Notes under the pieces: model-generated
The model's input: only the letters and a program-made list of their open reading frames with translations
Database searches by the model: none
Told to the model about the DNA's origin: nothing
Part shown: piece after piece, positions 4,286 through 18,189 of the stretch
Layout: each line of letters begins with the position of its first letter
Numbering within the stretch: position 1 is the stretch's first letter
Source of the DNA: a virus
Reading direction: 5' to 3' (one strand)
Length of the DNA: 64,000 nt
IMG/VR virus record: IMGVR_UViG_3300003316_000080
Span: 1-64,000 of that record
Position numbers and translations under genes: made by a program

Positions 4286-5737
4286 GTGGAGATTCAAACC
4301 ACGCTAGACGCAAGTCTGGCTGAGAACCTGTTGACGCTTCTGTGCTTTGACGACGAGCACTGCAAGCTGATCCGGTATGGGCTGACGCCGCAGATGTTTG
4401 AATCGGCGGTGCTCAAGCAGATTGCCGGCGTCGCAATCGACTTCATCGATCAGTTTGGTGTCGCGGTCAAGGAGCACTTGCCCGACCACCTAGAAGACAT
4501 CCTGAACGGTGAAGACCAGCGCAAGGCGAAGTCGTATCGGATGGTGCTGGAAAAGCTGTATGACTCGAAGGACGCGGTGAATGCCGAGTTCGTCATGTCG
4601 CAGTTGCATGCATTCGTTCGCGCAGCCACGCTGAAGAGCGGACTGATGGACGCCGTTGCTCACATGGAGTCGGGCCGGATCGCGGAGTGCGAAACAGCCA
4701 TGACGACAGCCTTGAGCCGTCAGGTGATTTCGTTCGAAGTGGGCACGCGACTGGACAATGCAGACAGCTTGTCGGAAGCGCTGACCAATCTGGAAGAACC
4801 GGGCTTCAACCTCGACATTGACGCTTTCGATCGCGTTGGTGCGATTCCACGCCGCAAGCAGCTGTCTGTGTTCTTGGCAGCACGTGGCCGTGGTAAGTCA
4901 TGGTGGTCGATCTACATGGGCAAGCAGGCGCTGCTGCAGCGCTGGTCCGTGCTGATTGTCACGTTGGAGTTGTCTGAGGCGTACTACACGAAGCGCTTTC
5001 TGCAGTCGTTCTTCTCAATCTCGGACCGACAAGCCAAGGTGCTGGTGTCGGAGTTCAAGCGCGGACGTGATGGCTCGATCGTGGACGTCGTTCAGTCGGA
5101 ACTGCACCGACGCACACTGCGTGACGATGACTCCTTGGAGTACATCGCAGCGCGAGCACGGCGCGAGTTCAAGCAACGCCCCCCGCTGATCATCAAGAAC
5201 TTTCCTACAGCGACACTGACAGCTGAGACGCTGGAAGCGTATCTGGACGGTCTGCAGCGCCATCAGAACTTCACACCGGACCTGATCCTTGTCGACTATC
5301 CAGGCTTGATGAAGCTCGATCCCAAGAACAAGCGCATTGAGCTGGGATCGGCGGTGGAGCGTCTACGCGGCATTGCCGTAGCCCGCAACGCCCACATGGG
5401 GATCATGGCTCAGGGCAATCGTGAGTCGGAGACGGCACACACGGTCACGGCGGACATGACCGCCGAGGACATCTCGCTGTTGGCTACGGCTGACTTGTTC
5501 TTCACCTACAGCCAGACCAAGCTGGAGGAAAAGCTTAACCTCGCCCGCATCTTGTGTGAGAAGAACCGTAATGGTGTGGACGGCTTCGGGGCTCTGATCA
5601 CACAAAGCTATGAGATCGGCCAGTTCTGCCTGGACTCCAGTCCGCTAGAAACTTCTTACTGGGAACTGGACGTGCACGAGCAGGAAGACGAGGACCGGCC
5701 GCGCCGCAAGAAGCGTCGCAACGAGGACGAAGAATGA
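4286..5737 (+). CDS. dnaB: DnaB-like replicative DNA helicase
   Basis: GTG start; Walker A AARGRGKSW, Walker B LILVDYPG, C-terminal EKNRNG as in DnaB family. Confidence 0.75.
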   Translation: MEIQTTLDASLAENLLTLLCFDDEHCKLIRYGLTPQMFESAVLKQIAGVAIDFIDQFGVAVKEHLPDHLEDILNGEDQRKAKSYRMVLEKLYDSKDAVNAEFVMSQLHAFVRAATLKSGLMDAVAHMESGRIAECETAMTTALSRQVISFEVGTRLDNADSLSEALTNLEEPGFNLDIDAFDRVGAIPRRKQLSVFLAARGRGKSWWSIYMGKQALLQRWSVLIVTLELSEAYYTKRFLQSFFSISDRQAKVLVSEFKRGRDGSIVDVVQSELHRRTLRDDDSLEYIAARARREFKQRPPLIIKNFPTATLTAETLEAYLDGLQRHQNFTPDLILVDYPGLMKLDPKNKRIELGSAVERLRGIAVARNAHMGIMAQGNRESETAHTVTADMTAEDISLLATADLFFTYSQTKLEEKLNLARILCEKNRNGVDGFGALITQSYEIGQFCLDSSPLETSYWELDVHEQEDEDRPRRKKRRNEDEE

Positions 5738-7314
5738 TTCTGGTGTCGCGCCATGCCATCACACGCTACCTTGACCGAGAGCTAGAAACACACAAGTGGG
5801 TCAAGAAGCTGACAGAGCGTCAGCTGTGGCAGGAACTGAAGCAGCTGCGCACTGTCCCTCAGTTCAAGACTGACCCATGGCTGCACCAACTGGCGTGCTT
5901 CTATCTGGGCCTGCACTACCTGCGCTTCCTGTTCATCCTAGACATGGGGCTGGGCAAGTCGAAGTTGGTGATTGACCTGATCGAGCACCGTTTTCGGCAG
6001 AAGCGTCTCAGCATGCGCCGCGACGGACGCACAGCGCTGGTGATCGTTCCAGGCGTGCTGAATACGGTTGGATGGGGTGAGGACATCGAGCGCCATTCAC
6101 TCATGGAACCGCACCTGATCACGTGCGAGAACATTGAGCAGAAGCGCTATGAACTGCTGCACCCACAAGGTGAAGTGACCGTGATCGACATGCCGTCGCT
6201 TGCCCTAGCACTGTCCACCAAGAAGAAAGGCAAGGGTCGTGGCAAGTTGCTGGCAGACAAGCAGGCGATTGCACGCGCTCAGCAGTTGTACGGTTTCATT
6301 GGCGTTGATGAGACGCACAAGTACAAGAACCACGAAACCCTGTGGTACGACGTGCTCGATCCTCTGTGTGCAGCAGCCGACGAGGTGAAGGGGCTGACTG
6401 GAACCATCTTCAGTGCAAGTCCGATCGAGATGTGGCCGCAGTTTAATCTCGTCGACCGAGGTGAGACGTTCGAGAACCGTGGACTCTTCCAGGCGGCCTT
6501 CTTCGACTCGAAGTCAGATCATGTGAAGGGGACTGTGTACACCTTCAGGCCTGAGAGGACACGTACTCTCAACAGGATGATGCAGCACCGCTCGATTCAG
6601 TATGACGAATCGGAGGTGCACGAACTTCCAGAGCGCGTCTATCGTCCGATCAGGATGGAACTGGCAGGCGAAGCGGACGAGCATTACCGTCGCGCTCTGG
6701 AAGGTGTCATTAATGTTGGCGCCGCCGAGAGTAGCAAGCTAGATGGAGGCTGGGTGCGCATGCGCCAGATCTGCGGTGGCTACCTGAAGTGGTCTGATGC
6801 ACACGGAGCGCACAAGCTCATCTTTGCACAGAACCCGAAGTTGGACATGCTGATGCGCCTGCTGGAGGACATCGGAAGTAAGAAGGCTGTTGTGTGCCAT
6901 GACTACACCGACAGCGCGGAACTGATCGAAGCGCGGTTTAAGAAGGAGGGCATCAAGTACGCCACGTGCTCAGGGCGGACGAAGGACAAACCGGCAGAAC
7001 GCGCTCGCTTTCTCGATGATCCAACCTGCCGCGTCTTCTTGATGCAGAACGCGGCTGGGGGAACAGGCACTGACGGCCTGCAGAAGGTGTCCAACTACAT
7101 GATCTTCTTTGAGTCGCCAGCCTCCCCGGGTCTGCGCAAGCAAGTAGAAAAGCGCATACATCGTCCAGGTCAGACACAGAGGGCGTTCTACTACGATTTG
7201 ACATATGGGCGCACCGTCGATAGCGGCATCCGTGAAGCACACAAGCAGGGTTTTGACCTATACGAAGCCGTGATGTCTGGACGCTCTTCGACCTTGAGAG
7301 GGCTCATGAGTTGA
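5734..7314 (+). CDS. SNF2/SF2-family DNA helicase
   Basis: motif I LDMGLGKS, motif II VDETHK, motif VI HRPGQTQ. Confidence 0.75.
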   Translation: MILVSRHAITRYLDRELETHKWVKKLTERQLWQELKQLRTVPQFKTDPWLHQLACFYLGLHYLRFLFILDMGLGKSKLVIDLIEHRFRQKRLSMRRDGRTALVIVPGVLNTVGWGEDIERHSLMEPHLITCENIEQKRYELLHPQGEVTVIDMPSLALALSTKKKGKGRGKLLADKQAIARAQQLYGFIGVDETHKYKNHETLWYDVLDPLCAAADEVKGLTGTIFSASPIEMWPQFNLVDRGETFENRGLFQAAFFDSKSDHVKGTVYTFRPERTRTLNRMMQHRSIQYDESEVHELPERVYRPIRMELAGEADEHYRRALEGVINVGAAESSKLDGGWVRMRQICGGYLKWSDAHGAHKLIFAQNPKLDMLMRLLEDIGSKKAVVCHDYTDSAELIEARFKKEGIKYATCSGRTKDKPAERARFLDDPTCRVFLMQNAAGGTGTDGLQKVSNYMIFFESPASPGLRKQVEKRIHRPGQTQRAFYYDLTYGRTVDSGIREAHKQGFDLYEAVMSGRSSTLRGLMS

Positions 7315-7353: not shown

Positions 7354-8424
7354 ATGACTGGGCGGGTCTTTCGTTGGCGTGAACTATTTGACGAACATCA
7401 CGTTCGTTACATAGAGCGCGGCGCCAACGTGAAGCGCGGGGAGATCAACATCAAGTGTCCGTTCTGTGGCGCAGCTGATCCCAGCTACCACATGGGCGTC
7501 AACCTTGAATCAGGCTTTTGGGCCTGTTGGCGTAATGAGAACCACCGGGGCAAGTCGCCGCTGCGTCTCATCGTCACGCTGCTCAAGGTGTCGTACTACA
7601 GGGCCCGCGAGATCGCTGGCTTTGGTGACGACTACATCGATCCCGAGGGCTTCTCTGCTATGGCTGCACGCGTGCTGGGCCGCGACGGCCTGCTCGCTGG
7701 TGGCCGCACGGTTGACGAGGACCGGCAGCACCTGAAGTTCCCGCGTGACTTCGACACGCCACGCCGTCAGCGTGGATCGCGCGTGTGGAATTACCTCGCA
7801 CGTGAACGCGGTTTCGGTGTCTTCACAGATGAGTTGATCGACTACTACAGCATCAAGTGGACTCAAGGCGCTGAAGTCAACGAGAAAGATCCCGACGCGT
7901 GGAAGAAGAAATACGCCTGGACGGATCGCGCCATCATTCCGTATTACCTCGACCACAAGCTGATGACCTGGACAGGCCGCACGGTAAACGGTCATGCGAT
8001 CCGCTACAAGGATCTCTCAGTGGACGAGTCCATCAAGCCCCCCAAACAGACGCTGTTCAACTTTGATCGCACGATCAAGGGCGGTCGGGTGCTGCTGGCT
8101 GTCGAAGGTCCCATTGATGCACTGAAGGTCGATTTCTTCGGTGCAGAGGTCAAAGTGCGCGCTGTGGCGATGAGCACCAACAGCATGACGGATGAGCAGG
8201 TATATATGCTGGCCGACGCTGCCGAACGCTTTGACCGCCTGTTGTTCATGCTCGACAACAAAACGCAATTCGGCATCGTCGATTCGATGAAGATCAAAGC
8301 CAAGCTGAGCCACATCCCGAACGCGGGTGTGATCAGTGTTCCCTACGGCTTGGGGGATGCTGGGGCGCTCAGTCCCAAACAAGCAACGGAATGGACGGAC
8401 AAACTTTCTTCGGGGGAGCTATGA
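7354..8424 (+). CDS. dnaG: DNA primase (zinc-ribbon + TOPRIM)
   Basis: CPFCG...H zinc finger near N-terminus; TOPRIM-like LLAVEGPIDALK. Confidence 0.75.
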   Translation: MTGRVFRWRELFDEHHVRYIERGANVKRGEINIKCPFCGAADPSYHMGVNLESGFWACWRNENHRGKSPLRLIVTLLKVSYYRAREIAGFGDDYIDPEGFSAMAARVLGRDGLLAGGRTVDEDRQHLKFPRDFDTPRRQRGSRVWNYLARERGFGVFTDELIDYYSIKWTQGAEVNEKDPDAWKKKYAWTDRAIIPYYLDHKLMTWTGRTVNGHAIRYKDLSVDESIKPPKQTLFNFDRTIKGGRVLLAVEGPIDALKVDFFGAEVKVRAVAMSTNSMTDEQVYMLADAAERFDRLLFMLDNKTQFGIVDSMKIKAKLSHIPNAGVISVPYGLGDAGALSPKQATEWTDKLSSGEL

Positions 8425-9403: not shown

Positions 9404-10387
9404 GTGAGCAAGATCCAGAAAGAACTGCAGGACGTGACCGGCGTGAATCCGGCCGAGGACCAGTCGATCATCGACCCGGCCTACATGAAGAAGGTCGTCA
9501 AGGCCGCTTCGAAGGACATTCCCGAGAAGGACTGGGACAAGCTGTCCGAGGAAGCCAAGGACTGGGTCAACGCGGCTGTGGACGCGATGAACGAGCGCGA
9601 AGACATCAAGCCGTATCCCGACTACAAGGAACCGGCAAAGGAAGAGAAGAAGTCGACCCGCCGCCGCACCGATGATGACGAAGGCGACAAGCCGGCCGCT
9701 GCCGCCTACGCCGTCGGCGACGAGGTCGAAGTGACCAAGACCAACGGCAAGACCGTGGCCGGCGTCGTCAAGAACCTCGATGATGACGGCGACCTCGTCC
9801 TCGAAGACGAAGAAGGTGAACTGGCCGTGCAGCTGAGCAAGATCGAGGCGGTCGTCGTGACCAAGGCCGCGAAGCCGGCCAAGGAGGAGAGCAAGCGTCG
9901 CCGCAACGATGACGACGAGGACGATGCGAAGGATGCGGGCCCCGGCGTCGGCGACGAGGTCAAGATCGTCAAGACCAACGACCGCACCAACGAGGGTGTG
10001 ATCACCTCGATCGACGAAGACGACATCGTCATCAAGGACGAAGACGGCGACGAGATCACGATCGCCCGCAGCAAGGTCAAGACCGTCGAGATCATCAAGA
10101 AGGCGAAGAAGGCGTCTGCCAGCAAGTCCGACGTGAAGGACGACGCCAAGGACGACGAAGGCGACGGCAAGCGCAAGCGCGCCGGCAAGGGCGAGGATGG
10201 CGTGTCCGCCGCGCAGCGCGTCTTCGAGATCATGTGCGAAGACCCGCTGGACCCGCCCTCGCTGGAAGAACTGACCAAGCAGATCCAGAAGGAAGGCCGC
10301 GACTGCAACGCCAACACGCTGAAGATCAACCACACGACCGCGTCGAAGATCTTCACGCTGCTGAAGGCCGGCAAGCACCTGAAGTGA
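9404..10387 (+). CDS. highly acidic protein with two internal repeats
   Basis: GTG start with AAGGAG 5 nt upstream; repeats VGDEVEVTKTNGKTVAGVV... and VGDEVKIVKTNDRTNEGVI...; D/E-rich. Confidence 0.55.
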   Translation: MSKIQKELQDVTGVNPAEDQSIIDPAYMKKVVKAASKDIPEKDWDKLSEEAKDWVNAAVDAMNEREDIKPYPDYKEPAKEEKKSTRRRTDDDEGDKPAAAAYAVGDEVEVTKTNGKTVAGVVKNLDDDGDLVLEDEEGELAVQLSKIEAVVVTKAAKPAKEESKRRRNDDDEDDAKDAGPGVGDEVKIVKTNDRTNEGVITSIDEDDIVIKDEDGDEITIARSKVKTVEIIKKAKKASASKSDVKDDAKDDEGDGKRKRAGKGEDGVSAAQRVFEIMCEDPLDPPSLEELTKQIQKEGRDCNANTLKINHTTASKIFTLLKAGKHLK

Positions 10388-10422: not shown

Positions 10423-10459
10423 GAGGGGCCCTGTATATTGCGGGGCCCCTTTTCTTTTG
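10423..10459 (+). terminator. rho-independent terminator
   Basis: stem 10424-10431 / 10443-10450 (GGGGCCC), loop TGTATATTGCG, T-tract 10450-10459; followed by GGAGAA and ATG 10471. Confidence 0.6.
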
Positions 10460-10470
10460 TCGGAGAACCC

Positions 10471-11637
10471 ATGACCACAATCGACAGAAGCTCGATCATG
10501 CGAGCGTGCGCCCAGGTGCGCCCCGCAGTGAGCAAACAGCCGTTCATTCCCGCGTTCACGCACTTCTGCTTCAACGAGGGTGCCGTGTTCGCATACAACG
10601 ACACGCTGCTGCTCATGATGTCGTTGCCTGACGACGCGGCCGAGATGCCATCTTGCTGCGCGCCTGCCGACGTACTGACAGAAGCCCTGCGCAGCATGGG
10701 CGGCGACACAATGGAGGTGCAGCACGACACTGACTCTCGCGAACTGCACATCAAGGCCGGCCGCTCGAAGTTCAACCTCAAGACGCTGCCGACGGAAGAC
10801 TTCCAGATGCACCTGGAGCTACCCACGGCCGAAGAGAAGAAGCGCGGCTGGAAGTTTGATGCGTCTGCCGACTTCATCGAAGGCTTGCGGGCCTGCCGTA
10901 TGGCCGTAGGCAACAACCCCAACCATCCGGCCTCCATGGGCATCACGCTGGGTAGTGTGAGCGGCAATGCGGTGCTGTACGCAACGGACAACGTGACCAT
11001 CACGCGCTATGCCGTCGACATGGAACACGATGGAGAAGATGACGCGATCCTGCCCACACCATTCTGCGATGCCCTGCTCAGCTTCGCAAAGGCCATGCCC
11101 AACGACAGGATCGAGATCTCTGTGCTGCGCGGCGTGGTGAGCGCCACATTCCACGATAAGCGGGACAAGCACGGGATCGGCGGCGTCATCGTCACGAAGA
11201 CACTGACAGACTTGGCCGCCCTCGACTATGAGCAGATCATGCGCAAGCACGTGGACATGAAGCGCGTGGCGGACATTCTGTCACCGCTGCCGGCAGACAT
11301 GGGTGCTGTGTTCGAGCGTGCCGCCGCAGTCGGCGTGGATGAGCCGCGCACCACACTGCGCCTTGTGTCGGGCTCCGATAACGAGGTCAGCGTCAGCGCA
11401 TCGGGCGTGGGTGCTCAAGCGTCAGACGTGCTCGTGTTCGATGGCAAGCGCTCAGACGAAGCTTTGGCCGCGCTCGACGAAGAAGCGGAAGACGTCAATG
11501 CTGCGCATGTGCTGCGCGCGGTCAAACACACTGACCGACTGGCTTTCGTCAAGAACGCGCTGCTGTTCGGAGACGCTAAAGCGAAGCTCCTTCACCTCGT
11601 GGGGTATATGGCACCCATCAAGAAGTCCAAGAGGTAA
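10471..11637 (+). CDS. dnaN: beta-clamp-like DNA polymerase sliding clamp
   Basis: IKAGRSKFNLKTLPTEDF matches DnaN VRSGRSRFSLSTLPAADFP; ~388 aa. Confidence 0.65.
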   Translation: MTTIDRSSIMRACAQVRPAVSKQPFIPAFTHFCFNEGAVFAYNDTLLLMMSLPDDAAEMPSCCAPADVLTEALRSMGGDTMEVQHDTDSRELHIKAGRSKFNLKTLPTEDFQMHLELPTAEEKKRGWKFDASADFIEGLRACRMAVGNNPNHPASMGITLGSVSGNAVLYATDNVTITRYAVDMEHDGEDDAILPTPFCDALLSFAKAMPNDRIEISVLRGVVSATFHDKRDKHGIGGVIVTKTLTDLAALDYEQIMRKHVDMKRVADILSPLPADMGAVFERAAAVGVDEPRTTLRLVSGSDNEVSVSASGVGAQASDVLVFDGKRSDEALAALDEEAEDVNAAHVLRAVKHTDRLAFVKNALLFGDAKAKLLHLVGYMAPIKKSKR

Positions 11638-11640
11638 GGC

Positions 11641-14274
11641 ATGTCGTTTTTCTTCGCAGAGACAAAGCGCGCCAAGAAGACAGGCGCTCCGTCGAAGAAG
11701 GCCGTGATCCCCATCGCAAGCCTGCAGCGTGCCGGCTGCACTGTATGTCCGCGCAAGGCAGACTGGGACGACGGCATCAAGACGCCACAGATGAAACCGG
11801 CCGGCCATCAGTCGCCGACGGTGTATCTGCTAGGCACGGCCCCGTCTGAGAAGGAAGACCGACTGGACGAGCCCTTTGTGTCCACAGCCTATGAAGAGGT
11901 GCTGTCGAAGTTGCCGGCGTCTCTGAGGCGGTATAGCCGCGTCGGCTATCTGACGCAGTGCAAGGCCGCCAGTAAAAACTTGATGCTGGAGATGTCGCCG
12001 GACCACGCGGAGATCGAGTGCTGCCGTCCTCGCGTGATCGCAGACATCGAAGAGACGAAGCCGATTGTCGTGATCGGCATCGGCGACAAAGCGCTTAATT
12101 GGGCCCTCCCCTTCTCATCGGGCGTCACCTCGATCACGCATCGAGGCACCTTGTTTCCGGTGAAGTTCGGGACGCACACGTGCTGGTTTTACAGCGTCAT
12201 GTTCCCGGCATATGTGCACCGAGAAAAGCGCAAGTATCCGACTGAGTACGAGATCGCGCTGACGCACGACCTACGCAATCTCGCTAAGTTGATCAACAAC
12301 GAAGAGATTGGTGTTCCGAAGATCTACGCAGACAAGTGGGAAGAGGGTATCGAGATCGTGACAGGTCACGATGCCGGAGACTTCCAGCGTGTGGAGCGCG
12401 CACTTGCAGACATGGCAGCGCTGCCCGATGTCGCACTCGACATCGAAACCAATGGCCTGCGGCCCTGGCACTTGAACAAGCCCAGGTTGTGGACTGCCGC
12501 AGTAGGCACATTCGAGCGTGTGATCGCCTTCCCGATTGATCATCCTGACGGCTGGGGCGCTGACGCGCGCATCCGCAAGATGCACGGTCTGTTCGCTGAG
12601 TGGCTGTGGCAATCGCGCCGGAAGTGGGCACATAACCTTGCAATGGAACTGGAGTGGTTTAACTGGTTCTACAGTCCGCACGCGATCATGGGCAATGAGT
12701 GGGGCGACACGATGGCCCTTGCCCATGTACTCGACGAGCGCAAGGGCACGAAGTCATTGGAGGTGCAGACGATCATTGGCGCCGGCTTCAACCTGAAGTC
12801 CATGAGTCCAGTTGATCCGTCGTTGCCTGACTGGATCAGTAAGTACCCGATTAAGACGGTGCTGAAGTACAACGGTGGAGACTCGAAATGGACGGACTTC
12901 CGTCGCCGCCAGCTGCAGCCGATCGTGGAGGCCGACGAAAAGCTCCATGACGTCTATCAGCACAAGATTCGAATGGCGCCGGCTTTGATCCTCACAGAGG
13001 CCAAGGGCCTACCGGTGTCTGTGCCGCGTGCTGAGAAGATGAATCGCGCACTGACGGAGCAACTGCACAAGATTGAAGACAAGCTGCGGGCTGATGTGGC
13101 TGTGCGCCGCCATACAACGCAGTTCGGCCAGTTCAGCCCGACGAACTCCGATCATGTGCTCGCGCTGATGGAAAAGACCCTCAAGCGCGATGAGATCTAC
13201 ATCATTGAGAAAGACGGGTCTGAGTCGAAGTCAGTCGCTGAAGAAGTGCTGGCGCTGATGCCTGAAGATGAGGTGCCATCAGCGAAGTTGATCCTGGAGC
13301 ACCGGGGCATCTCCAAGCTGAAGTCGACGTATCTGGAGCCAGTGATCAAGGGCACGATGATCAGCGTCGATGGCTATGTGCACTCGAAGTACAGCAGTCT
13401 GTTCGCCGCGACCCACCGCCTGAACTCTGAAGATCCCAACGCGCAGAACTGGCCTAAGCGCAAGCACAAGGAAGTTCGCTCGATCTTCTACGCGGAAGAT
13501 GATGAAGAGATTCTGGCGTGCGACTACGGCCAGATCGAGTTCCGCGTCGTGGGCATGTGCTCGGAGGACGACAACCTGTGCCGGGCCGTGTGGACCGGGT
13601 ACGACGTGCACTTGCACTGGGCAGAGCGGATCGTCGCCCTGTATCCCAAGATCAAGGACTGGATCAGATCAGAGTTCGAGGTGGACTGGGATGAGAAGGG
13701 CATCAAGACGCTGCGCCAGGAGGCCAAGAACAAGTGGGTGTTTCCGCAGTTCTTCGGTGCCTCGATCAAGTCGTGTGCAGCCTCTCTGCACTTGCCTGAA
13801 GAGGTCGCGCAGGATCTGGCTGATGAACTATGGGATGAGTTCCGAGGCGTCAAGCGCTGGCAAGACAAGTTGATGGAGTCGTTTGCGCGCAAGCTCTACG
13901 TGGAGACGCTGGACGGTGCGCGCCGTCGTGGGCCCATGACCAAAAACGAGATCATCAACATGCCGATCCAGGGCACAGCGGCCCGCATCGTGCAGACCGC
14001 GCATGCAGCTTTGGCTGAACGCGGCTTCATCATGGATCGCGGCGTGTATATCCCATCGCTGAACGTACATGATGACCTCTCAACCTGGAGCAAGAAGGCA
14101 GAGCGGGAGGCCAACGTGAAGATCATCGTCGAAGAGATGTGCAAGCACCGATTTGACTGGATCAACGTGCCGCTGCTGGTGGAAGTGTCGGCCGGGCCTG
14201 ACTGGTCCGACCTGACCGAGATCGGCAAGTACAGCAGCCATGAGCTGTTCAACATCAGGAACCCTTACCAATGA
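11641..14274 (+). CDS. polA: family-A DNA polymerase with N-terminal UDG-like (family 4) domain and 3'-5' exonuclease domain
   Basis: Exo I LDIETNGL; motif A DYGQIEFRV; motif C VHDDL; N-terminus YLLGTAPSEKEDRLDEPFV with Cys cluster resembles Fe-S UDG. Confidence 0.85.
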   Translation: MSFFFAETKRAKKTGAPSKKAVIPIASLQRAGCTVCPRKADWDDGIKTPQMKPAGHQSPTVYLLGTAPSEKEDRLDEPFVSTAYEEVLSKLPASLRRYSRVGYLTQCKAASKNLMLEMSPDHAEIECCRPRVIADIEETKPIVVIGIGDKALNWALPFSSGVTSITHRGTLFPVKFGTHTCWFYSVMFPAYVHREKRKYPTEYEIALTHDLRNLAKLINNEEIGVPKIYADKWEEGIEIVTGHDAGDFQRVERALADMAALPDVALDIETNGLRPWHLNKPRLWTAAVGTFERVIAFPIDHPDGWGADARIRKMHGLFAEWLWQSRRKWAHNLAMELEWFNWFYSPHAIMGNEWGDTMALAHVLDERKGTKSLEVQTIIGAGFNLKSMSPVDPSLPDWISKYPIKTVLKYNGGDSKWTDFRRRQLQPIVEADEKLHDVYQHKIRMAPALILTEAKGLPVSVPRAEKMNRALTEQLHKIEDKLRADVAVRRHTTQFGQFSPTNSDHVLALMEKTLKRDEIYIIEKDGSESKSVAEEVLALMPEDEVPSAKLILEHRGISKLKSTYLEPVIKGTMISVDGYVHSKYSSLFAATHRLNSEDPNAQNWPKRKHKEVRSIFYAEDDEEILACDYGQIEFRVVGMCSEDDNLCRAVWTGYDVHLHWAERIVALYPKIKDWIRSEFEVDWDEKGIKTLRQEAKNKWVFPQFFGASIKSCAASLHLPEEVAQDLADELWDEFRGVKRWQDKLMESFARKLYVETLDGARRRGPMTKNEIINMPIQGTAARIVQTAHAALAERGFIMDRGVYIPSLNVHDDLSTWSKKAEREANVKIIVEEMCKHRFDWINVPLLVEVSAGPDWSDLTEIGKYSSHELFNIRNPYQ

Positions 14275-15236
14275 CACGACGCAAACTGGCCGATGAAGTC
14301 ACGCACGGTAAAGACCTCGCGCAGCGCTGGCGACCTCGCAATCTGGGTGAGGTGGTCGGACAAAGCGCAGTGGTTCGCTCGCTCGAAGCGATGCTGAAGC
14401 GCGAGACGCGTCCGCACTGCTTCATCTTCACTGGACCCTCGGGCGTGGGCAAGACCACACTGGCGCGGATCGTCGCTCAGGAGTTGGGGGCACAGCACAA
14501 CATTGTGGAGATCGACGCTGCGACCAACACGGGCGTTGACGCAATGCGTGATGTGCTGGCAGGCACGATCTACAGCGGCTTTGGCAGCAACTCCAAGTTC
14601 TATCTGATCGACGAGGCACACATGCTCTCGAAGGCAGCGTGGAACTCGATGTTGAAGACGCTGGAGGAACCACCCGACCACGTTTACTTCGCGATCTGCA
14701 CGACGGAGCCAGAGAAGCTGCCGGCAACGATCAGCACACGCGGTCCTGTCTATGCACTGAAGTCTGTGCCGCGCAAGGACATCAGCAACCACCTGATCCT
14801 GATTGCTGAAGAAGAGAGCCTGGAAGTCACAGATGAGGGGCTGGATAGGATCGCAGAGGCTGCTGGCGGCTCGCTGCGCGCTGCGATCAACATGATGGTT
14901 GCAGCAGACGGTGTGAGGGGTGATGACCTGGATGACATCATCGAACGTGCAGATGCGGGCGGCAACAAGCAGGTCATTGATCTGGCCCGCGCATTGGTCA
15001 ACGACCAACTGACGTGGACGAAGCTGACGGGCATCCTGAAGGATCTGGAGGGCCAGAGCGCGGAGGGCGTCCGCATTGTTGTGGTCAACTTCACAGCTGC
15101 GTGCTTGATGAAGGCCACATCAGACAAGCAGATCGCACGGCTGTTGAACGTGCTGCACGCCTTCTCCACCCCATACACCACAGCCGACAAGATGGCACCC
15201 TTGCTCCTCTCGTTCGGCAACCTTCTGTATAAGTGA
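14271..15236 (+). CDS. dnaX: clamp-loader AAA+ ATPase (DNA pol III gamma/tau-like)
   Basis: Walker A GPSGVGKTT, Walker B LIDEAHML, KTLEEPP, SRC-like SLRAAIN. Confidence 0.8.
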   Translation: MTRRKLADEVTHGKDLAQRWRPRNLGEVVGQSAVVRSLEAMLKRETRPHCFIFTGPSGVGKTTLARIVAQELGAQHNIVEIDAATNTGVDAMRDVLAGTIYSGFGSNSKFYLIDEAHMLSKAAWNSMLKTLEEPPDHVYFAICTTEPEKLPATISTRGPVYALKSVPRKDISNHLILIAEEESLEVTDEGLDRIAEAAGGSLRAAINMMVAADGVRGDDLDDIIERADAGGNKQVIDLARALVNDQLTWTKLTGILKDLEGQSAEGVRIVVVNFTAACLMKATSDKQIARLLNVLHAFSTPYTTADKMAPLLLSFGNLLYK

Positions 15237-15238
15237 TC

Positions 15239-15739
15239 ATGGACATCGCCTATTTCCGCTCGCGCATCAAGGTCAGCCAGCACACGCTGGCGGAAGATCT
15301 GGAGATCCATGCTGACCATATGGAGAAGATCGGCCGTAAGTCAGCAGCAGCAGCCCGGGCAGAGGCCAAGGCCAAGCAGGCGCGCGACGAGACAGAGGCG
15401 AGGTTGATAAAAGATTTACTGGAGGACAACGAGCGCATGGCGCTCAACAAGGCGCAGGCGACTGCCAAGGCGTCGCGCGAGTATCAGCAGGCCCAGTCCG
15501 TATATCTCGACGCACAGAACGAACTTGCCGAATGGCAAGAGGTGGAGAAGGCGTGGTATCAGCGTGGCTTCGATCTGCGGGCGCTCGTCGAGTTGTTCTC
15601 GGCCCAGTACTTCCAGATCGATCCCACTGCCGGCGCAGGCCGGGCTGAATCGCGCCGCTCCGTGTCTGAATACATGAGCAATCGAGACAAGGGCGAAGAG
15701 AAGCGCAACCGCCAACGACGGAGCTTGAACGATGAGTGA
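15239..15739 (+). CDS. hypothetical coiled-coil protein
   Basis: ORF track; Ala/Glu/Lys-rich helical sequence. Confidence 0.45.
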   Translation: MDIAYFRSRIKVSQHTLAEDLEIHADHMEKIGRKSAAAARAEAKAKQARDETEARLIKDLLEDNERMALNKAQATAKASREYQQAQSVYLDAQNELAEWQEVEKAWYQRGFDLRALVELFSAQYFQIDPTAGAGRAESRRSVSEYMSNRDKGEEKRNRQRRSLNDE

Positions 15740-15857
15740 ATTTTTGGCATTGGTAGTGGGCGCAGTCGGCGGCGTGCTGGCGGTCTACATCTGTGTGCGG
15801 GTCGCCTCAGCCGCATATTTCAAGTCACTGAGGCAACACAATGAGGAAACCAAATGA
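15732..15857 (+). CDS. small membrane protein (41 aa)
   Basis: ATG 15732 and stop 15855-15857 both overlap neighbours; single hydrophobic helix FLALVVGAVGGVLAVYICV. Confidence 0.35.
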   Translation: MSEFLALVVGAVGGVLAVYICVRVASAAYFKSLRQHNEETK

Positions 15858-17083
15858 GAAACCGTGACGATGATGACCGTGGTTCGCGCCGTGGTCGCGA
15901 TGATGACGATGACCGCCGCAGCAGCCGTGGCCGTGACAGCGGTTCGAGCCGTGGCGGTTTCGTCTACAAGCAGCGCAGCGCCGAAGAGAACCGCAAGCGC
16001 GCCGAGAACACCGGACGAGACTTCGAGTCGATTTACAAGGACGGTGTCAACCTATACAAGGTCAAGGACGGCGACAACAGCGTCCGTGTGCTGCCGCCGA
16101 CGTTCAAGGGCGCCCAGCACTACGGACTCGACATCCAGGTCCACTTCGGCATCGGGCCCGACCGCGCGACGTACCTGTGCCTCAACAAGATGCTGGACAA
16201 GCCGTGCCCGATCTGCGAGGCACGCCAAGAAGCGCAGCGTGACGGGGACGACGAACTGGCGAAGGAACTGGCACCCAAGCAGCGTGTTCTCGTCGCCCTG
16301 ATCGATCGTGATGATGAGAAGGCCGGTGTGCAGATCTGGGGCATGCCCTGGACCGTCGACCGTGACCTGGCCCAGGTTGCCGTCGATCGCAAGACCAAGG
16401 AAGTGCTGCCGATCGACCATCCTGAAGAAGGGTATGACGTCTTCTTCACGAAGACGGGCAAAGAGCGCAACACGAAGTACGGCGGCATCTCTGTGGACCG
16501 GCAGCCGTCAGAACTCGGCCGGCGCGGCGACGAGTGGCTGGACTGGATTCAGGAACACCCGCTGGACACGCTGCTGAACTACGCCAGTTACGATGACATC
16601 GCCAAGGCGTTCAACGGCGGCGGCTCTGGTGGCGGTTCGCGTCGTCGCGATCGCAGCGATGACGACGATGACCGCTCTTCGCGTCGTGGCCGTGATCGTG
16701 ACGATGACCGCAAGAAGGACGATGTCCTGTCGTGGGATGACGTTCACGGCATGAAGCCGCGCGAACTCGAAGACCTCGCAGCTGAGCACGGCATTAAGTC
16801 GTCCAAGTACGACGATGACGAAGAACTGGCTGACGCGATCTGTGAAAAGCTGGACATCAGCAAGCCCAAGCCGCGACGCTCGCCTGGACGTGATGGCGAT
16901 GACGACGATGACCGCTCTTCGCGTCGTGGCCGTGATCGTGATGACGATTCCAATGAGAAGACGGCGCGTCGTCGGTCCAATGATGACGACGAGGACGACA
17001 CCCCGCGCACCCGTCGCCGTGAGGCCAATGACGACGATGACGCGGAAGAAGGTCTGCGCAAGATGCGCCGCCGCGCGGAGTGA
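15854..17083 (+). CDS. ssDNA-binding protein, T4 gp32-like Zn site, with Arg/Asp-rich repeat tails
   Basis: H-x12-C-x8-C-x2-C (HFGIGPDRATYLCLNKMLDKPCPIC) resembles gp32 Zn ligands; three DDDDDRSSRRGRDRDDD repeats. Confidence 0.55.
   Translation: MRNRDDDDRGSRRGRDDDDDRRSSRGRDSGSSRGGFVYKQRSAEENRKRAENTGRDFESIYKDGVNLYKVKDGDNSVRVLPPTFKGAQHYGLDIQVHFGIGPDRATYLCLNKMLDKPCPICEARQEAQRDGDDELAKELAPKQRVLVALIDRDDEKAGVQIWGMPWTVDRDLAQVAVDRKTKEVLPIDHPEEGYDVFFTKTGKERNTKYGGISVDRQPSELGRRGDEWLDWIQEHPLDTLLNYASYDDIAKAFNGGGSGGGSRRRDRSDDDDDRSSRRGRDRDDDRKKDDVLSWDDVHGMKPRELEDLAAEHGIKSSKYDDDEELADAICEKLDISKPKPRRSPGRDGDDDDDRSSRRGRDRDDDSNEKTARRRSNDDDEDDTPRTRRREANDDDDAEEGLRKMRRRAE
16658..16940 (+). repeat. two identical 43-bp direct repeats 240 bp apart inside SSB gene
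   Basis: GATGACGACGATGACCGCTCTTCGCGTCGTGGCCGTGATCGTG at 16658-16700 and 16898-16940; degenerate third copy near 15890-15940. Confidence 0.7.
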
Positions 17084-17085
17084 TC

Positions 17086-18189
17086 ATGGCAGCACGCAAA
17101 ACGACCAAGCCTGCGGTGAAGCAGGCAGCGCCCAAGTCGGTCGCGGCTCGCAAGCGTGCTGTTCTCCGTGATGTGGATGAGGGCTCTGACGAGTTCGTCG
17201 AGCCCTCCTACTTCTCTGCGGGGGACAGCAAAACCAACATCGAGTTCATCTCAACTGGATGCACGATCCTGGACGAGGCGCTGGGTGGGGGTGTCGCTGA
17301 AGGACGTGTGCTGAATGTCGTCGGTGACTCGTCCACGGGCAAGACACTGCTGGCAATGGAGATCGCGGCCAACTTCGCGCTGAAGCATGCGGAAGGACTC
17401 GTCCGTTACGCTGAAGCAGAACTGGCCTTCGACGATGATTATGCGGAAGCGATGGGCATGGACCTGTCGCGTGTCGAGCGCAACAGCGGCTCGCGCCTCG
17501 TGGGCACCGTCGAGCAGTGGCACGATGATCTCGTCGACTTCATGAAGAGGCTGAAGGGTCGTCCTGGCCTGTACATCCTCGACAGCCTCGACGCGATCTC
17601 CGATGACGATGAGGTGAAGGCCGAGTTCGGTGAAGCCAGCTACGGCGGCAAGAAGCCCAAGCTGATCTCCCAGCTGTTCAGGCGCACGATCAATGATCTG
17701 CATGCGGCCAACGTGACGCTGATGATCGTCTCGCAGACGCGAGACAAGATCGGTGTGACCTTCGGGCCGACGAAGACGCGATCAGGCGGCAAGGCGCTGG
17801 AGTTCTATTCGTCACAGATCGTTTGGCTGGCGCATGTCGGCAAGATGGACAAGACGATCGATGGCATCAAGCGCGTGATCGGTCATGAGGTCCGCGCCAA
17901 GGTCAGCAAGAACAAGTGCGGACTGGCGCACCGGACTGTCGACTATCCCGTGCTGTATGGCTACGGAATCGACGACATGATGGCGGGCGTGACGTGGCTG
18001 ATCGAGAACAAGTGCGATGAAGCTCTGGAAGAACTCGAACTGACCAAGGCCGGTGCGAAGACTTCAGTGGCGGCCATGCGCAACAAGCCGGAGCGCGCTC
18101 GCGAGTTTCGTCCGAAGATGCGCAAGATCGTGCGTAGGGAATGGGCGCGCATCGAAAACCTGTTCTTGCCTAAGGCCCGTAAATACTGA
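17086..18189 (+). CDS. recA: RecA-like recombinase
   Basis: TGCTILDEALGGGVAEGRVLNVVGDSSTGKTLLA matches RecA core and Walker A. Confidence 0.75.
   Translation: MAARKTTKPAVKQAAPKSVAARKRAVLRDVDEGSDEFVEPSYFSAGDSKTNIEFISTGCTILDEALGGGVAEGRVLNVVGDSSTGKTLLAMEIAANFALKHAEGLVRYAEAELAFDDDYAEAMGMDLSRVERNSGSRLVGTVEQWHDDLVDFMKRLKGRPGLYILDSLDAISDDDEVKAEFGEASYGGKKPKLISQLFRRTINDLHAANVTLMIVSQTRDKIGVTFGPTKTRSGGKALEFYSSQIVWLAHVGKMDKTIDGIKRVIGHEVRAKVSKNKCGLAHRTVDYPVLYGYGIDDMMAGVTWLIENKCDEALEELELTKAGAKTSVAAMRNKPERAREFRPKMRKIVRREWARIENLFLPKARKY

Follow-up and report, generated by a model that had tools for sequence, protein, structure and literature searches.

A gp32-family single-stranded DNA-binding protein with mixed-charge tails, a SAP-like acidic module, and an intragenic 46-bp repeat in a myovirus genome

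The sequence analysed in this study, hereafter the window, is a stretch of 64,000 nucleotides (positions 1 to 64,000 of IMG/VR virus record IMGVR_UViG_3300003316_000080) and contains most of a roughly 65-kb myovirus genome. A gene at 15854..17083 on the + strand of the window encodes a protein of 409 amino acids (aa) which, by a sequence threshold and by fold, is a member of the T4 gp32 family of proteins that bind single-stranded DNA (ssDNA), known as SSBs. We consider it probable, at roughly 75%, that this gene encodes the phage's own ssDNA-binding protein for replication and recombination, and that flexible polyampholyte linkers present its interaction modules. The functions attributed to it here (ssDNA binding, zinc binding, cooperativity, and partner recruitment) would follow from its homology to gp32. 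A folded SAP-like module, a conserved basic C-terminal helix, and the existence of a large family are three points that go beyond an earlier note on this DNA.

The gp32 profile of Pfam (PF08804) matched the protein with 41.9 bits, the cut-off being 26.8; aa 71-210 were aligned with positions 1-163 of the 208 positions of the profile. In PHROGs, the protein matched phrog_34306 ("unknown function") at 1.8e-64 over aa 23-382 and phrog_1192 (SSB) at 6.5e-20. An AlphaFold2 model was built from 70 homologues, and the per-residue confidence (predicted local distance difference test, pLDDT) exceeded 90 over about aa 60-254 of the core. When this predicted model, not an experimental structure, was used as a Foldseek query against the PDB, the matches at E<=0.001 were gp32 entries only (2a1k, 1gpc, 8gme, and 2atq; probability 1.00, target template-modelling (TM) score 0.53-0.64). 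The best match was the RB69 gp32 core 2a1k (E 3.7e-7, target TM 0.63); the T4 gp32 core 1gpc (E 1.7e-6) and the gp32-Dda-dT17 complex 8gme were also found, and the next match appeared at E 0.05. The earlier note had called the product a gp32-like SSB and had stated that a lack of similarity to gp32-type OB folds would speak against this; because PF08804 is above its cut-off and the significant fold matches in the PDB are all gp32 structures, that assignment is upheld. Since PDB sequence searches with the whole protein (phmmer) and with a 70-member profile gave no significant match, gp32 included, gp32 was reached by the Pfam hidden Markov model (HMM) and fold comparison only. The bacterial SSB HMM PF00436 gave no match at E<=0.1, and the C-terminus EEGLRKMRRRAE is basic, not acidic like DDDIPF. 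The gene and its parts are as follows.

15854..17083, + strand: complete gene of the gp32-family ssDNA-binding protein (open reading frame (ORF) call, Pfam, PHROGs, and Foldseek)
15854..15955, + strand: N-terminal Arg/Asp/Gly-Ser polyampholyte extension (N-tail), aa 1-34 (composition; pLDDT 40-52)
15956..16006, + strand: basic motif GFVYKQRSAEENRKRAE, aa 35-51 (conservation; short helix at 43-49)
16007..16612, + strand: gp32-type OB-fold core, aa 52-253 (Pfam, AlphaFold, and Foldseek)
16142..16216, + strand: putative zinc-site segment (codons of H97 at 16142-16144, C109 at 16178-16180, C118 at 16205-16207, and C121 at 16214-16216)
16613..16723, + strand: GGGSGGGS linker and Arg/Asp-rich segment RD1, aa 254-290 (composition; low pLDDT)
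16724..16861, + strand: acidic three-helix SAP/HeH-like module, aa 291-336 (net charge -9; pLDDT 92-97 by 10-residue block)
16862..17044, + strand: Arg/Asp-rich segment RD2, aa 337-397 (composition; low pLDDT)
17045..17080, + strand: basic amphipathic C-terminal helix EEGLRKMRRRAE, aa 398-409 (model and conservation)

The earlier note had also described a His/Cys zinc site spaced as in T4 gp32. The window protein has H97-x11-C109-x8-C118-x2-C121, and T4 (read from NC_000866) has H64-x12-C77-x9-C87-x2-C90; all four ligands are present in the same order as in T4, but two of the intervals are one residue shorter, so that the order agrees fully and the spacing nearly so. In a profile alignment, the three Cys residues are in register with C77, C87, and C90 of T4, and the His is off H64 by one position. 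Alignment of the family profile with the single T4 gp32 sequence by hhalign was short and weak over the zinc segment (probability 15%) and was used for the register alone, not as homology evidence. Among the 70 aligned sequences, H97 is retained in 67, C109 in 63, and C118 and C121 in 41 each; in 29 of the 70 homologues C118 is replaced by Asp, and in 29 position 121 is not Cys. The putative metal site is complete in the window protein, but a large share of the family can dispense with it.

The protein belongs to a large family. One protein search gave 348 matches among the scored candidates, most of the matches listed being 350-480 aa in length, and 224 family loci were confirmed in IMG/VR. 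Family records are mostly annotated as "hypothetical protein", and a few recent ones as "single-stranded DNA-binding domain protein". The shared plan consists of a charged N-tail, the core, a Gly-rich hinge, a charged segment, the module, a second charged segment, and a terminal RLxxMRxxR; the charged N-tail is found in the GC-rich subfamily only. Uncharacterised orthologues in cultured phages, which belong to phrog_34306, are ZHS_54 of Edwardsiella phage vB_EpM_ZHS (UNA00810.1), MAR10_073 of Vibrio phage MAR10 (AFV81307.1), and proteins of the Vibrio phage SSP002 group. Their cores are 42-49% identical to that of the window protein (aa 36-253; tblastn), and ZHS and MAR10 share with it the charged N-tail, core, charged linker, SAP-like module, second charged linker, RLxxMR tip, and gene neighbourhood. 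The MAR10 protein differs in lacking the Cys ligands and in its short N-tail, and the orthologues differ in repeat sequences and tail lengths. Variants were also found: three loci (L055, L057, and L068) have Pro/Ala-rich tails without the module. In two further loci (L038 and L069), a Cys-rich CxxC...CxC knuckle, DCLACSDTGKNSKGGFCVCAKG, is present instead of the SAP-like module; it lies directly downstream of the second copy of an exact repeat (49 bp and 34 bp, respectively), not between the copies, and suggests module swapping within the same tail framework.

Outside the core, pLDDT below 50 in three segments (about aa 11-35, 260-289, and 348-395) predicts disorder. The 409 residues include 73 Asp, 57 Arg, and 27 Lys. 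Basic and acidic residues account for 32% and 29% of the N-tail (34 aa, net +1), 32% and 32% of RD1 (37 aa, net 0), 11% and 30% of the helical module (46 aa, net -9), 30% and 36% of RD2 (61 aa, net -4), and 42% and 25% of the tip (12 aa, net +2), and the net charge of the whole C-terminal region (aa 254-409, 156 aa) is about -11. Across the 70 aligned sequences, the charged segments all keep their net charge within about +/-4 and have roughly 60% charged residues, and the lengths range over 18-86 aa for the N-tail, 33-97 aa for RD1, and 13-61 aa for RD2, with a nearly invariant core of 216-223 aa. For 68 IMG/VR and phage genes, the charged fraction outside the core, with the SAP-like module included, has a median of 0.51. 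Because the R/(R+K) ratio of the tails tracks gene GC content in these genes (Spearman rho 0.67), AT-rich members being Lys/Glu-tailed, it is the charge rather than the identity of the residues that is kept. The charges in RD2 are significantly blocky (z 4.7); blocky charge as a conserved property of the tails was dropped, since the family median of z is -0.5 and the patterning is significant in RD2 of the window protein alone.

T4 gp32 has an N-terminal basic segment, the "B domain" (KRKST), which mediates cooperative binding. In the window protein, the basic motif FVYKQRSAEENRKRAE, in which Y38, R41, and R49 are invariant among the 70 homologues, is located not at the protein N-terminus but between the N-tail and the core, and it appears to be placed where T4 gp32 has its cooperativity segment. 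Its resemblance to the T4 N-terminus MFKRKSTAEL in position and character is a lead only.

The module is flanked by two copies of a repeat peptide described below. Its model matches the helix-extended-loop-helix fold (SAP/Rho-N/LEM), and its BFVD matches are annotated as Rho_N or SAP. Among the Pfam profiles SAP, Rho_N, and HeH, the best for the module was Rho_N, which stayed below its cut-off (E 0.059; 13.8 bits against 24.9), with a weak match in 3 of 36 homologues. C330 is invariant, and W294, H298, M300, E304, L305, L325, A326, D327, and I329 are conserved at 90% or more, the consensus being TWDxVHxMTxxELxDLIDxxxLDIxPxxxKDDEDLADWICEEL. Unlike SAP, HeH, LEM, and Rho N-terminal domains, it is strongly acidic, has an invariant Cys, and has no sequence-level membership. 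The net charge is -6 to -16 across the 70 homologues, with no basic surface suited to nucleic acid; because of this strongly negative charge, DNA binding by the module is disfavoured, and protein binding or DNA mimicry towards the core fits. The terminal helix is modelled over residues 398-408, with L401 and R405 at least 90% conserved. In 104 of the 136 distinct proteins, the C-terminal 25 residues contain a motif [RK]Lxx[ML]R, as compared with 0.006 per 25 residues elsewhere, and the window tip GLRKMRRR is a near variant of it.

A profile search with aa 286-340 of the window protein detected the module in other contexts. Three SSBs (P0124, P0125, and P0129) have 2-3 copies, and two other uncharacterised protein families (P0123/P0130/P0137 and P0158/P0185/P0193/P0257; loci L086 and L087) have 3-5 tandem copies with Glu/Lys-rich linkers. 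The P0123 gene adjoins genes for HNH, 5'-3' exonuclease, and endonuclease VII, and that of P0158 adjoins QueC and GTP cyclohydrolase I; the N-terminal domain of P0123 had no PDB sequence match. An apparent 11-repeat module match, P0241, was a leucine-rich-repeat false positive. In L085 (2-1212), a truncated gp32-like core ORF is followed after 24 nt by a separate 273-aa ORF, P0121, consisting solely of four modules and a basic tip. P0121 was therefore rejected as a free-standing module array; the two ORFs are a split SSB gene, or one with a frameshift that is either programmed or an error of assembly.

A different role of the tails was considered on the basis of their charge. Arg/Asp dipeptide repeats and natural arginine-rich mixed-charge domains form condensates in a manner that depends on length and arginine and is tunable by net charge (bioRxiv 10.1101/771592), and the tails of the window protein have the features of such domains: a high charged fraction (60-65%), near-zero net charge, and Arg as the cation. 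The Arg/Asp segments might be cohesive stickers instead of passive linkers and, with the SAP-like module, cause SSB-ssDNA to self-associate multivalently in a replication/recombination compartment and govern the partitioning of proteins. The tandem recurrence of the module (2-5 copies) with mixed-charge linkers, both in the SSBs listed above and in non-SSB proteins, one of which adjoins replication/repair genes, is consistent with this idea, as is a second window protein (9404-10387) that also consists of small domains joined by mixed-charge linkers. However, the AT-rich relatives have Lys/Glu tails, and Lys substitution abolished condensation (10.1101/771592); moreover, blocky charge patterning is not conserved, and Pro/Ala-rich tails replace the charged ones in L055, L057, and L068. 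We therefore regard a condensing role as unlikely. It is also doubtful, though conceivable, that the tails and the acidic module constitute a previously unrecognised, portable, multivalent docking system of phage replisomes, in which the module, in one to five copies on gp32-type SSBs and at least two other families, would bind a common partner and organise a replication/recombination compartment. The partner would possibly be the RLxxMR helix, a recombinase, or a helicase, and such a system would be similar in function to the interactome of the bacterial SSB tip or to eukaryotic mixed-charge-domain condensates.

The C-terminal half of the gene contains an exact direct repeat, the two copies of which are as follows.

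16656..16701, + strand: 46-bp direct repeat, copy 1, probable conversion acceptor (repeat search and four-way alignment)
16896..16941, + strand: 46-bp direct repeat, copy 2, probable conversion donor, 240 bp (80 codons) downstream of copy 1

The two identical copies had been given as 43 bp in the earlier note; the identity is real, but the exact repeat is 3 bp longer (46 bp) and extends to 52 bp with 2 mismatches. It encodes a 17-aa peptide, DDDDDRSSRRGRDRDDD, identical at aa 269-285 and 349-365. Repeats had been assigned to both ends of the protein; the N-terminus (aa 1-34) does have related, degenerate units, DDDDRGSRRGRDDDDDRRSSRGRD, but these are not identical, and the exact peptide is restricted to its two copies in the C-terminal half. 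The gene was shuffled 1000 times by swapping codons among the positions of the same amino acid, with the protein and the codon usage kept. The longest exact repeat in the shuffled genes averaged 15 bp and reached 25 bp at most; because the shuffles never exceeded 25 bp, the DNA identity over 46 bp is not a by-product of the repeated peptide.

The history of the repeat was traced with L001 (Logan SRR31214434, a 66-kb contig), the only close relative found, whose gene is 97% identical and encodes a 406-aa product. Exact-pattern scans of JGI metagenomes (two patterns) and of IMG/VR (the repeat pattern) found no strain-level relative; megablast against cultured phages gave no DNA-level match, and the exact protein was absent from the records. 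Between L001 and the window, the core has 4.7 substitutions per 100 nt, 30 of them synonymous and 1 non-synonymous, while RD1 has 14.4 per 100 nt with one 6-bp indel and RD2 has 7.0 per 100 nt with indels of 6 and 3 bp. All three indels are in frame, and all are in RD1 or RD2. The core is under purifying selection, and it is only in the tails that indels and gene conversion occur. A four-way alignment of the repeat copies shows the sequence on the left of each copy to be orthologous in the two genomes. Within the repeat, copy 1 of the window is identical to copy 2 of the window and to copy 2 of L001, and differs from copy 1 of L001 at 4 diagnostic sites; in L001, the two copies have diverged from each other. 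The simplest history is a gene-conversion tract of at least 46 bp within the gene, from copy 2 (RD2) into copy 1 (RD1), in the lineage of the window. The suggestion of the earlier note that the repeats reflect recent duplication or a recombination-prone sequence is borne out by the diverged copies of L001 and by these diagnostic sites.

An artefact, in which the perfect repeat or the whole tail architecture would result from mis-assembly or from collapse of low-complexity reads, was also weighed. Low-complexity GAY/CGN repeats are hard for assemblers, and the tail of L085 is a separate ORF after a truncated core, possibly because of a frameshift error. Nevertheless, 46 bp is shorter than a typical read, the ORF is uninterrupted, the independent assembly L001 has the same gene plan with in-frame differences only, and the completely sequenced cultured phages ZHS and MAR10 share the architecture. 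This explanation is thus very improbable.

Long exact repeats bracketing the inter-repeat segment were also found in ZHS (38 bp, 324 bp spacing), L028 (42 bp, 318 bp), L038 (49 bp, 243 bp), and L069 (34 bp, 333 bp), and tandem repeats in L070 (60 bp) and L075 (53 bp). The intragenic repeat sequences of different lineages are unrelated to one another. In 107 family pairs with cores at least 90% identical, there were 0 gaps in the core; per pair, the N-tail had 1.3 gap events and the C-tail 2.2. Intragenic repeats are general across the family and arise by ongoing gene conversion and slippage.

A function of the repeats as DNA elements was compared with these data: they could be in-gene origin iterons, as in lambda O, or recombination sites for programmed in-frame excision of the 80-codon module segment, by which a population would contain two SSB isoforms. 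The gene has eight degenerate 28-nt units, long exact bracketing repeats recur in the four relatives named above, and the phage encodes RecA-, RuvC-, and SbcCD-like functions, all of which are compatible with such a role. Against it, the repeat DNA is wholly different between lineages and follows the amino-acid and GC usage of each genome, and what is conserved is the charge balance of the protein, the module, and the tip, with all indels in frame. Cumulative GC skew has no inflection at 16-17 kb, and the tandem-repeat finder reported no array in the SSB gene. No deletion variant was found, and L001, the only close relative in the collections searched, keeps the module. The multiple-of-3 spacing of the copies is automatic for repeats encoding the same peptide. 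A role at the DNA level is thus quite improbable. Antisense ORFs over the repeats (e.g., 16744-17061, minus strand) were rejected as unsupported Ser/Arg-rich by-products of the GAY/CGN repeats.

The preferred reading, a replication and recombination SSB with polyampholyte linkers, can be set out as follows. The core would coat ssDNA, and the basic motif at aa 35-51 would act as the N-terminal cooperativity segment of gp32 does. The net-acidic C-terminal region (aa 254-409) would correspond to the acidic C-domain, gating the DNA-binding cleft; PMC5892887 describes gp32 by a three-domain model, with the proposal that the acidic C-domain binds at the DNA site or close to it and makes contact with partner proteins. 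The same region would recruit putative partners (recombinase, helicase, polymerase, or clamp) through the SAP-like module and the terminal helix, carried on polyampholyte linkers whose length is little constrained. The GAY/CGN-rich coding repeats would drift by slippage, unequal exchange, and gene conversion, to which phage-encoded recombination functions may contribute; these events would be tolerated in the tails because selection acts there on charge and flexibility, that is, on composition and not on sequence. The 46-bp repeat would be the trace of one recent conversion, in which copy 2 overwrote copy 1.

Several observations weigh against this reading. The structural-alignment identity to gp32 is just 14-15%. 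The CxxC pair is missing in 41% of the aligned family members, which means that the family does not require zinc. The N-terminal extension is present only in the RD-rich subfamily, which is left unexplained if linker length matters little. In addition, gp32, T7 gp2.5, and bacterial SSB have acidic tips whereas that of the window protein is basic, so that the analogy with recruiting tails may fail in detail.

Comparison with known systems shows what the family has kept and what it has changed. With T4/RB69 gp32 (PF08804; 1gpc, 2a1k, and 8gme), the window protein shares the OB-fold core (target TM 0.62-0.64), the order and, nearly, the spacing of the His-Cys3 ligands, a basic motif before the core, a net-acidic C-terminal region, and the position of the gene among replication/recombination genes, beside that of a RecA/UvsX-type recombinase. 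Unlike T4 gp32, it has a 34-aa polyampholyte extension before the basic motif, with no T4 counterpart. Its C-terminal region is 156 aa long, as compared with about 48 in gp32, is not simply acidic but has Arg mixed with Asp, and contains a folded SAP-like module and a tip that is basic, not acidic. The N-terminal polyampholyte extension, the SAP-like acidic module, the basic tip, and recurrent conversion of coding repeats are absent from T4/RB69 gp32.

The E. coli-type SSB (EcSSB) follows a shared logic, i.e., a DNA-binding core, a variable low-complexity linker, and a short conserved C-terminal peptide as a possible recruitment hub. Its linker is Gly/Gln/Pro-rich and not a polyampholyte, and its tip is acidic and hydrophobic (DDDIPF). 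It also differs in being a homotetramer with an OB fold of another family. The EcSSB linker promotes both cooperativity and phase separation (bioRxiv 10.1101/2022.01.17.476650). Eukaryotic arginine-rich mixed-charge domains (R-MCDs) of nuclear-speckle proteins share with the tails a low-complexity composition of Arg and Asp/Glu, about 60% charged residues, near-zero net charge, and location on a nucleic-acid-binding domain (10.1101/771592). The window protein, in contrast, is phage-encoded and evolutionarily unrelated, and has Lys/Glu versions in AT-rich relatives.

Because gp32 is the textbook model of an SSB coordinating replication, recombination, and repair through its terminal domains, a family that retains the gp32 core and rebuilds both termini, and that is abundant yet mostly annotated as "hypothetical", is worth describing. 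Full-text searches of one literature library found no paper on a phage SSB with such repeats or a SAP domain. The members of the family differ in tail length, in tail composition (Arg/Asp or Lys/Glu), in core type (zinc-containing or zinc-free), and in the number of module copies (one to three), and this natural series could serve to examine the tuning of SSB cooperativity and partner recruitment by disordered polyampholytes. The family has practical relevance to gp32-based reagents for isothermal amplification, and it accounts for a class of low-complexity, repeat-rich phage ORFs in annotation. For specialists the surprise is limited, since SSBs are expected to have disordered, fast-evolving interaction tails.

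The SSB gene is located in a replication block, and its nearest features with assigned or predicted character are the following.

14271..15236, + strand: clamp-loader subunit, DNA polymerase III delta'/gamma-like AAA+ (Pfam/PHROGs)
15732..15857, + strand: hydrophobic mini-ORF of 41 aa, translationally coupled to the SSB gene (ORF overlap)
17080..18189, + strand: RecA/UvsX-like recombinase (Pfam/PHROGs)

The reading frame of the SSB gene is uninterrupted from its ATG through 409 codons to the stop. A GAGGA Shine-Dalgarno sequence lies 6 nt before the ATG, which overlaps the TGA of the upstream mini-ORF (ATGA, 15854-15857), and the TGA of the SSB gene overlaps the GTG (17080) of the RecA-like gene. 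In the window, the two helicase genes are at 4286-5737 and 5734-7314, the primase at 7354-8424, the sliding clamp at 10438-11637, and the polymerase at 11641-14274. The genes identified are ordered as exonuclease, DnaB-like helicase, SNF2-type helicase, primase, sliding clamp, family-A polymerase, clamp loader, 168-aa protein, mini-ORF, SSB, RecA/UvsX-like, RuvC-like, SbcD-like, SbcC-like, and methyltransferases, followed by terminase, portal, protease, major head, sheath, tape measure, baseplate, and fibre genes. ZHS and MAR10 keep the order polymerase, clamp loader, hypothetical, mini-ORF, and SSB; the RecA-like gene follows the SSB gene directly in ZHS, and a thymidylate kinase gene lies in between in MAR10.

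The mini-ORF encodes the peptide MSEFLALVVGAVGGVLAVYICVRVASAAYF..., and small ORFs are found at the same position in L001 (41 aa), ZHS (ZHS_55), and MAR10 (MAR10_072); its product is probably a membrane peptide within the replication operon. The 168-aa protein encoded at 15233-15739 (+), between the clamp loader and the SSB, is helix-rich and by eye coiled-coil. Its position is kept in relatives (ZHS_56 and MAR10_071). No family is assigned to it, the best match being phrog_1069 (E 0.005), and it might serve as a mediator of recombination or as an accessory to the loader. At 15829-15863, a 13-nt unit, TGAGGAAACCAAA, is repeated in about 2.8 copies over the ribosome-binding site and start codon of the SSB gene and may be relevant to translational coupling or autoregulation.

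The protein with small domains mentioned above (9404-10387, +) is a 327-aa ORF product whose gene has the primase region on one side and the sliding clamp on the other; L001 has an ORF of equal length. Mixed-charge linkers (EEKKSTRRRTDDDEGD and EESKRRRNDDDEDD) separate its two small beta modules, which are KOW/SH3-like (VGDEVEVTKTNGKTVAGVV... and VGDEVKIVKTNDRTNEGVI...), and it is the only other protein of the window with polyampholyte segments like those of the SSB. Its Pfam matches are sub-threshold only (KOW7_SPT5, 1.5e-4), and by eye its C-terminal segment resembles a helix-turn-helix. The window opens (1-105) with a tandem repeat of the hexamer AGCCGT in 17.5 copies (12-nt unit AGCCGGAGCCGT).

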